From assembly GCA_013403045.1 (NCBI GenBank), contig GCA_013403045.1_3037.1: a stretch of DNA of 64,000 nt; one strand, written 5' to 3'. The DNA comes from Escherichia coli O157:H7. Its GTDB lineage: Bacteria; Pseudomonadota; Gammaproteobacteria; Enterobacterales; Enterobacteriaceae. The position numbers and the translations under genes are program-made. Within the stretch, counting starts at the first letter, position 1; every line of letters starts with the position of its first letter. The notes under the pieces are model-generated. The model had not been told where the DNA came from and did not search any database. It saw nothing but the letters and a program-made list of their open reading frames with translations. Shown here piece by piece: positions 50,513 through 51,367 of this stretch.

Positions 50513-50967
50513 TGGAATTTAAAGACTTTTCAACGGGTCTTTATGTAGCAGCTAAGTTTTCAGAATTAACACTTGATGCGCTGGAAGAACTTCAGCGCTC
50601 TTTACGTGTTCCTAATCCAGTTCCTAGAGAAAAAATTCATTCGACTATATGTTATTCAAGAGTAAATGTTCCGTATGTTCCATCAAGCGGAAGTTTTGAA
50701 GTAGCTTCTTCTGGACATTTAGAAGTATGGAAAACACAAGATGGATCTACTCTTGTACTTGTACTAGATTCTGAATATCTGCGCTGTCGACACATGTATG
50801 CGCGGGCGCTAGGTGCTACACATGATTTTGACGATTACACACCGCATATAACATTGTCTTATAATGTTGGGCCCTTATCATTTAGCGGTGATGTACAAAT
50901 TCCGGTCGTATTAGATCGTGAATACAAAGAACCTCTTAAGCTTGATTGGGCAGACGATTTAAAATAA
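50512..50967 (+). CDS. 57B: gp57B, 2H phosphoesterase family (Acb1-like anti-CBASS nuclease)
   Basis: 151 aa; two HxT/S motifs (HSTI, HITL) typical of 2H phosphoesterases; synteny after 57A. Confidence 0.8.
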
Positions 50968-50979
50968 TTTCACAAAGTT

Positions 50980-51009
50980 GTTTACACACTGATGAGGTAG
51001 TGATACTAT
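50980..51009 (+). promoter_or_regulatory. early promoter (GTTTACA, 17-nt spacer, TACTAT) upstream of IPI-like gene
   Basis: Motif read from sequence; part of a repeated promoter cassette. Confidence 0.6.
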
Positions 51010-51039
51010 TATCTCATCAAAATTAATTAGGAAAATAAA

Positions 51040-51297
51040 ATGAAAACTTTCAAAGAGTTTGCTACAAAAACTACTATCACTGAATCTTCTCATGGTATGG
51101 AAGTAAAGCTTGGAATGGCTTTAGCTGAAGCTGAGCGTCTTTTCTCTCGTATTAAAGAACTTGCTGCTGCAGTCGATCCTTCGTCTTTTAAAGGAGACCA
51201 AACTAAAGTTAAAGCACTTTTAGCATTATGCTCTGACGCAGGAGAAATCGCTAAAAATGGTTCTAAGATGAAGAAACGATTAGAAGATTTAAAATAA
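51040..51297 (+). CDS. internal protein (IPI-like), capsid-targeted
   Basis: N-terminus MKTFKEFATKTTITE resembles the T4 capsid-targeting sequence with an I-x-E gp21 site; early promoter upstream; located next to 57B where ipI lies in T4. Confidence 0.6.
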   Translation: MKTFKEFATKTTITESSHGMEVKLGMALAEAERLFSRIKELAAAVDPSSFKGDQTKVKALLALCSDAGEIAKNGSKMKKRLEDLK

Positions 51298-51309
51298 TTT
51301 CACAAAGTT

Positions 51310-51339
51310 GTTTACACGGGGTTTTAGTAGTGATACTAT
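51310..51339 (+). promoter_or_regulatory. early promoter (GTTTACA, 17-nt spacer, TACTAT), second copy of the repeated cassette
   Basis: -35 and -10 regions identical to the copy at 50980-51009. Confidence 0.6.
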
Positions 51340-51367
51340 TACCCTATCAACTACTGAGGAGAATAAA

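Follow-up and report, generated by a model that had tools for sequence, protein, structure and literature searches.

Promoter-bearing direct repeats flank the Ip5 gene and probably serve internal-protein cassette shuffling in the T-even IP1 locus of an AR1-type phage

The polymorphic IP1 locus of T-even phages, situated between 57B (Acb1) and tRNA.4, is the place of the gene Ip5, which here stands between two direct repeats, each including a putative early promoter. This arrangement raises the question of whether such repeats let genes enter, leave or replace one another at the locus. The window, i.e. the whole 64-kb stretch of DNA analysed, matches Escherichia phage AR1 (Tequatrovirus) at 100% identity between 50270 and 52800, and the gene order according to the AR1 annotation is 1 (dNMP kinase), 57A, 57B, Ip5, tRNA.4, tRNA.3 and tRNA.2. 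The left-hand gene, 57B (50512-50967, + strand, AR1 annotation), matches Pfam PF23474 Acb1 (anti-CBASS phosphodiesterase; E 2.6e-60), and the RefSeq label of gp57B is 'RNA ligase'. Ip5 (51040-51297, +) encodes an internal head protein of 85 aa (phrog_3499, E 1.2e-49) and is contained in 272 phage records. Its name follows the RB32 record ('Ip5... replaces ipI'), and its leader, MKTFKEFATKTTITE, is of the capsid-targeting type MKTFKEF...ITE. The first-pass annotation had called the gene IPI-like, which holds for the leader and for the assignment to the internal head proteins, while the remainder does not match IpI; homology to T4 IpI was rejected past the leader, to which the alignment is restricted. 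The gene tRNA.4 (51368-51553, +; AR1 annotation; phrog_1692; located by tblastn across loci) encodes a predicted membrane protein of 61 aa and bounds the locus on the right as its conserved anchor. Neither Ip5 nor tRNA.4 has a Pfam family, and Rfam gave 0 matches between 48 and 58 kb at E <= 0.1. A 44-aa antisense ORF annotated in AR1, ar1_148 (50959-51093, - strand), overlies the first promoter module and the start of Ip5 and is probably a spurious gene call. A second internal-protein locus, just past the lysozyme gene e, holds the single gene Ip4 (54067-54540, +; 157 aa; DUF7412/phrog_3155), with the leader MKTYQEFITEA and its own early-promoter-like site at ~53975-54010; the 32-nt repeat described below is absent there.

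Two promoter-bearing repeats 330 bp apart around the internal-protein gene had been reported at first pass, and they are indeed present. The 32-mer GATTTAAAATAATTTCACAAAGTTGTTTACAC has exactly two copies in the window, both on the + strand, at 50956-50987 and 51286-51317; no third copy was found in the 64 kb with up to 3 mismatches allowed, and 100 shuffles of the sequence gave 0 matches. Each of these exact left blocks comprises the DLK codons with the stop, the UP element and GTTTACAC. As had been noted, the last codons of the upstream gene are part of each copy: both open with GAT TTA AAA TAA (D-L-K-stop), which is the final three codons plus stop of 57B in copy 1 (50956-50967, stop at 50965-50967) and the end of Ip5 in copy 2 (stop at 51295-51297). 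The left block is followed by a non-matching block of 10 nt (ACTGATGAGG at 50988-50997 vs GGGGTTTTAG at 51318-51327), not by the 12-nt spacer initially given, and then by a right-hand exact block of 14 nt, TAGTGATACTATTA, at 50998-51011 and 51328-51341. 'Near-identical' over ~56 bp was thus generous wording for 49 matching positions out of 56, although the 32-nt and 14-nt blocks are exact. The repeat finder extended the pair to 69 nt with 84% identity (50952-51020 / 51282-51350) and found a further 25 nt, likewise 84% identical, across the Shine-Dalgarno sequence (SD) and the ATG (51021-51045 / 51349-51373). We refer to the complete units as junction modules. The first (50952-51045, +) consists of an AT-rich UP region, a -35, a hairpin spanning the -10, an SD and the Ip5 ATG, and the second (51282-51373, +), composed of the same elements, precedes tRNA.4.

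The GTTTACA-17-TACTAT motif pointed out at first pass was found in both copies, with a TG-extended -10. The site of copy 1 (50981-51009, +) has its -35 TTTACA at 50981-50986 and, after the 17-nt spacer, its -10 TACTAT at 51004-51009; that of copy 2 (51311-51339, +) has them at 51311-51316 and 51334-51339. Each TTTACA-17-TACTAT is preceded by the AT-rich sequence GATTTAAAATAATTTCACAAAGTT. Compared with the T4 early-promoter consensus GTTTAC-N14-gtggTAttaT, as quoted in the SA21RB annotation, the copies match at 6/6 and 8/10 positions with correct spacing, and both also fit TTTACW-N17-TAYWAT, the PST/T4 PeSL type (PMC4122927). On the strength of the consensus match and the AT-rich upstream region both copies are predicted to be T4-type early promoters, from which transcription would start near 51016 and near 51346, respectively. 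An SD and an ATG follow ~30 nt past the -10 in each (AGGA 51029-51032 and ATG 51040 in copy 1; GAGGAG 51356-51361 and ATG 51368 in copy 2).

The variable block between the two exact blocks is the complement of the bases just past the -10 and forms the 5' arm of a hairpin. In copy 1 (50990-51019, +) this hairpin has 13 bp, UGAUGAGGUAGUG-AUAC-UAUUAUCUCAUCA, with the -10 hexamer at the apex, and it reaches dG -14.8 kcal/mol and z -4.7 as an RNA fold and z -2.3 as a DNA fold. Copy 2 has a weaker, two-part hairpin over the -10 (51318-51345, +; GGGGU..UAGUA-GUGA-UACUA..ACCCU; dG -12.9), whose margin over shuffled sequences is only slight (z -1.6 with dinucleotide and -2.4 to -2.8 with mononucleotide shuffles).

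The locus was compared across 36 IMG/VR loci fetched by the 57B protein and across GenBank loci. The claim that the internal-protein gene can be gained, lost or swapped is borne out by this comparison: cassette presence and absence are polymorphic, and the distance between 57B and tRNA.4 varies from 79 to 1663 bp in 37 loci, with 0-5 genes inside it from at least 15 families, most of them with the MKT(Y/F)(Q/K)EF leader. Six configurations occur at loci that share both gp57B and tRNA.4 with the window at 100% identity (Ip5; Ip5-F4; Ip5-Ip9-Ip7; IpI; Ip7; and F4), and every junction in these six has a module; at more distant loci some junctions have no detected module. Empty sites with a single module between 57B and tRNA.4 were also seen in L009 and L010, whose gp57B is 85% identical. 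The upstream gene co-travels with the left part of the module (UP, -35 and 5' arm) and the downstream gene with the right part (3' arm and 5' UTR), the -10 core being universal among modules.

Close relatives delimit the events within the modules. A single 330-bp indel, equal to the repeat period, separates L005 from L036, with its breakpoint in the 32-nt left block, whereas L002 differs from the window by one 298-bp indel only, the edges of which lie inside the TAGTGATACTATTA (-10) core. Hybrid modules with mismatched hairpin arms occur in RB32, between Ip9 and Ip7, and in L028 at 4303, and from their sequences they look like footprints of crossovers within the -10 core. We also built the 701-nt product expected from deletion of Ip5 by recombination of the window's two copies and searched it against GenBank phages; it was collinear, in one piece and with ~96% identity, with bov9_1, bov10K1, PTE-Eco15, slur02/04/11/13, A6-6, 11B_SA_NWU and FT. 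The natural empty-site junction is 2 nt off the predicted hybrid. Since the flanks are only ~96% identical, these genomes show the configuration and not a recent deletion from AR1. Among the best 60 GenBank records the size of the span varies from 701 nt (the empty site) up to ~1,420 nt, and the flanking genes occur in ~580-710 records. Position 32 of the repeat (50987 and 51317 in the window) is C in both copies in the window/AR1 and in L002, and T in both copies in RB32 and L005; this agreement between copies within four genome types, a small sample, is a hint that the two copies evolve in concert or undergo gene conversion.

We propose, as a highly probable reading, that the directly repeated promoter modules are the recombination substrates by which early-expressed internal-protein cassettes are shuffled in the T-even IP1 locus. 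A module, with its AT-rich UP region, T4 early promoter, hairpin arms flanking the -10, SD and start codon in this order, would make the gene downstream of it an independently expressed early unit, in this case Ip5 and then tRNA.4. Within one genome, homologous recombination between modules would delete or duplicate the intervening cassette, and between co-infecting relatives it would swap cassettes. If 50956-50987 crossed over with 51286-51317, exactly 330 bp would be lost, Ip5 included, and one hybrid module would stay behind. Modules are suited to general homologous recombination because they provide directly oriented, near-identical stretches of 30-70 bp, and breakpoints in different parts of the module favour this over a site-specific process. 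We infer that general homologous recombination is the pathway of cassette exchange, judging from the positions of these breakpoints in the sequences.

The hairpin over the -10 requires separate consideration. As the register of the hairpin relative to the -10 varies by module type, per-sequence z-scores were compared with controls. In a sample of 50 unique modules of the 57B-tRNA.4 locus from 37 genomes, z was below -2 in 78%, as against 9% of control 46-mers, and at least 10 distinct arm pairs retain complementarity, although these statistics overstate independence because common descent links the modules. Examples of the arm pairs are TGATGAGG/CCTCATCA, GATAGGG/CCCTATC, GGTAGGACTA/TAGTCCTACC, GGTCTATAG/CTATAGACC and GTGTAGGGATA/TATCCCTACAC; in L009 (3211-3295) and L010 (3953-4036) the -10 is flanked by the perfectly complementary pair GGTAGGACTAT / ATAGTCCTAYC. 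The hairpins contain G-U pairs and are stabler as RNA than as DNA, and the sense RNA is stabler than the antisense RNA in 37 of the 50 modules (p = 0.008). A U-tract (at least 5 T in the next 8 nt) follows the hairpin in 0 of 41 modules, the mean being 1.7 T, which makes a terminator role doubtful; the reading of the -10 hairpin as an intrinsic (rho-independent) terminator was rejected for the missing U-tract, and terminator prediction gave no match within 50900-51400. Equivalent hairpins are labelled 'terminator' by prediction software in the SA21RB record. The preferred reading is that the hairpin acts at the RNA level, in transcripts that read through from upstream, where it would stabilise 3' ends or terminate weakly and in this way insulate the cassettes; such a role, be it 3'-end protection or weak termination, agrees with the strand asymmetry.

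A wider claim can be attached to the hairpin, namely that it may be functional in its own right, beyond the promoter-repeat or PeSL-like description, either as a cassette insulator or as a structure that focuses recombination. The compensatory arm pairs would speak for it, and if the hairpin formed only in sense read-through RNA, an insulator might set the 3' end and the stability of the upstream mRNA. We consider this rather unlikely and offer it tentatively; if it were true, the IP1 locus would be a more integron-like, self-contained cassette system than is now described.

The compensatory changes by which the arms conserve the hairpin could also be expected if exchange were site-specific and integron-like, with a hairpin or cruciform over the -10 as the site recognised and cleaved by, for instance, a structure-specific nuclease and with the cassettes moving as mini-circles, as has been proposed for RB49 PeSLs. 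PeSL mini-circles were detected in RB49/phi1, in a study that did not decide between site-specific and homologous recombination (Arbiol 2010, PMC2839356). However, the breakpoints are not at one place, lying in the 32-nt left block between L005 and L036 and in the -10 core between L002 and the window; the hairpin depends on G-U pairs and folds less firmly as DNA than as RNA; and the AR1 annotation has no recombinase gene at the locus. We regard site-specific exchange as decidedly improbable for these reasons, and retain general homologous recombination between modules as the preferred process.

How much of the likeness between the copies is due to their being promoters is a further question. 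Exact copies of the 19-nt UP/-35 core TTTCACAAAGTTGTTTACA are also present elsewhere in related genomes, at early promoters that serve unrelated genes, and therefore part of the 32-nt identity belongs to a dispersed promoter family and not to a local duplication. The divergent Ip5 of L017 has a different 3' flank and still ends in EDLK-stop, so the DLK codons shared by the copies may be native to both genes. The -10 block, too, is common to nearly all modules of the locus. It could thus be argued that the similarity reflects nothing else than strong T4 early promoters having converged or been conserved under host polymerase binding, with no special role in rearrangement. Yet in same-register alignment the copies are 84% identical to each other over 69 nt and 39-46% identical to the two other early-promoter-like sites of the window, so their similarity exceeds the promoter consensus; moreover, the indels between close relatives start and stop precisely within modules, and hybrid modules occur. 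Promoter conservation as the whole explanation is very unlikely in our estimation, and recombination between modules is again preferred. At unrelated genes in L044 (8765-8830), L046, L054 and L062 (IMG/VR), TTTCACAAAGTTGTTTACA stands directly behind GC-rich hairpins with T-tracts, in the canonical terminator-then-promoter layout of PeSLs.

Hardly credible at all is a passive, vertically inherited and now inactive scar of a single ancient insertion of Ip5 beside 57B, with the diversity produced by illegitimate recombination or transfer linked to homing endonucleases: the 3' flank of Ip5 matches that of 57B in all Ip5-bearing close relatives, and is therefore ancestral in the clade, and no AR1-specific event was seen, but the one Ip5 cassette has three different downstream neighbours, always joined to it by a module, empty, single, double and triple configurations exist at ~100% identical gp57B and tRNA.4 proteins, and the C/T agreement at position 32 in four genome types is a hint of continuing conversion.

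The internal proteins of T4 are injected with the phage DNA, and Ip1-3 block type IV (GmrSD-type) restriction (PMC12373910, PMC3012670). The locus lies directly after the anti-CBASS gene acb1 (57B) and, therefore, acb1 and the internal-protein cassettes make up a small counter-defence cluster. By its locus, Ip5 is a candidate counter-defence gene, the anti-restriction role being characterised in T4 Ip1-3 only. Cassette-like exchange of internal proteins through short promoter repeats would mean a quick change in the host defences that T-even phages overcome, which is relevant to the prediction of host range and to the stability of therapeutic phages.

Downstream of the locus, between 52800 and 52801, the window departs from AR1 by the loss of 6,062 bp (NC_027983.1, 63895-69956). 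This loss takes in the 5' part of an e.2-like membrane protein, e.3-e.8, four small ORFs, ten tRNA genes and segD; no tRNA genes were found in the whole window. Both flanks of the breakpoint are 100% AR1, and ATCATCA abuts GAGAAAG in a blunt junction. None of 665 phage records was collinear across it. An origin of the gap in recombination between promoter modules was rejected, as the junction is blunt, without microhomology and without a module; the gap reflects either a deletion in a natural variant or the editing or assembly of the sequence. A 52-aa ORF at 52845-53003 (+) is the C-terminal remnant of the AR1 membrane protein ar1_129 left by the gap.

The modules have counterparts in three known systems. 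PeSL cassettes have been described in RB49/phi1 (Arbiol 2010, PMC2839356) and in PST/T4 and nt-1/KVP40 (Comeau 2014, PMC4122927), and the PST/T4 PeSL combines the promoter TTTACW-N17-TAYWAT and its AT-rich region with a stem-loop immediately before the promoter and with an SD and an ATG (Comeau 2014, PMC4122927). The modules share with PeSLs the composite early promoter, the AT-rich upstream region, the SD and the ATG at the 3' end of the element, the direct orientation of repeats around small accessory ORFs in intergenic positions of a hyperplastic region, and the coincidence with indels and replacements between close relatives. They differ in the stem-loop, which in a PeSL precedes the promoter, whereas the hairpin of the window spans the -10 and lacks a U-tract. 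No stem-loop was found at the PeSL position in the 86 nt ending at each -35 (z +1.4 and +0.5), and the sequence before each promoter still belongs to a coding region, at the 3' end of 57B or Ip5. Compared with RB49/phi1, moreover, the boxes are of the T4 early type and not near-perfect sigma-70, and the stems are AT/GU-rich, with no Gn-loop-Cn (Gn/Cn) stems. The PeSL architecture invoked in the first-pass annotation is thus right as regards the promoter, the AT-rich region, the SD/ATG and the hyperplastic indels, and fails as regards the upstream stem-loop and sequence homology to RB49/phi1. Lacking a stem-loop immediately before the promoter, the repeats of the window are a PeSL analogue and not a strict PeSL.

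In T4, promoter-embedded hairpins sequester the ribosome-binding site in read-through transcripts of, for example, the lysozyme gene e, soc and gene 49. The modules resemble them in that the 5' arm lies upstream of the start of the internal promoter, with the consequence that only upstream transcripts form the hairpin. The window's two copies differ from these T4 hairpins in leaving the SD unpaired, the 3' arm ending ~10 nt before it; the internal-protein modules of some relatives (L006, L024 and L028) do pair the SD. An arrangement of this kind is also seen upstream of regB (56747-57208), where an early-promoter-like site at 56690-56745 (+) has a spacer, TTTTCCTCTTGACTG, that pairs with CAGTTAAGAGGAGAA including the SD, forming a hairpin (dG -20.1, z -7.4) with the SD within its 3' arm. 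According to this fold, the regB SD would be sequestered only in transcripts starting upstream of the early-promoter-like site.

Repoila, Tetart, Bouet and Krisch reportedly described repeated promoter homologies at the IP1 locus of T-even phages in 1994 (EMBO J 13:4181). In the citing literature these repeats are described as PeSL-like shuffling elements (PMC2839356, PMC4122927), and the work on the IP1 locus is cited once more in PMC3012670; Arbiol 2010 calls the T-even repeats 'PeSL-like... not homologs but analogs' (PMC2839356). The AR1 arrangement is the promoter-repeat and internal-protein-cassette polymorphism of the T-even IP1 locus (Repoila et al. 1994), and is already known. It shares with cassettes of that type the locus beside 57B at the ipI position, the cargo of small ORFs (such as Ip5, Ip7 and Ip9) that begin with a conserved capsid-targeting leader at the N-terminus, the bracketing homologies of ~40-70 bp that contain a T4 early promoter, and the proposed outcome, a recombinational shuffling of internal-protein genes; no essential difference emerges. 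The 57B-adjacent locus, the leader, the promoter homology on both sides and the varying set of ORFs were all found here, and the GenBank record of RB32 annotates Ip5/Ip9/Ip7 and carries the note 'flanked by 43 bp direct repeat'. Mechanism and locus having been in the literature since 1994, the AR1 instance is a confirmation and not a discovery. What it adds to the earlier picture is a confirmation on the genome scale, through the predicted empty-site and indel junctions, and a quantification of the hairpin over the -10.
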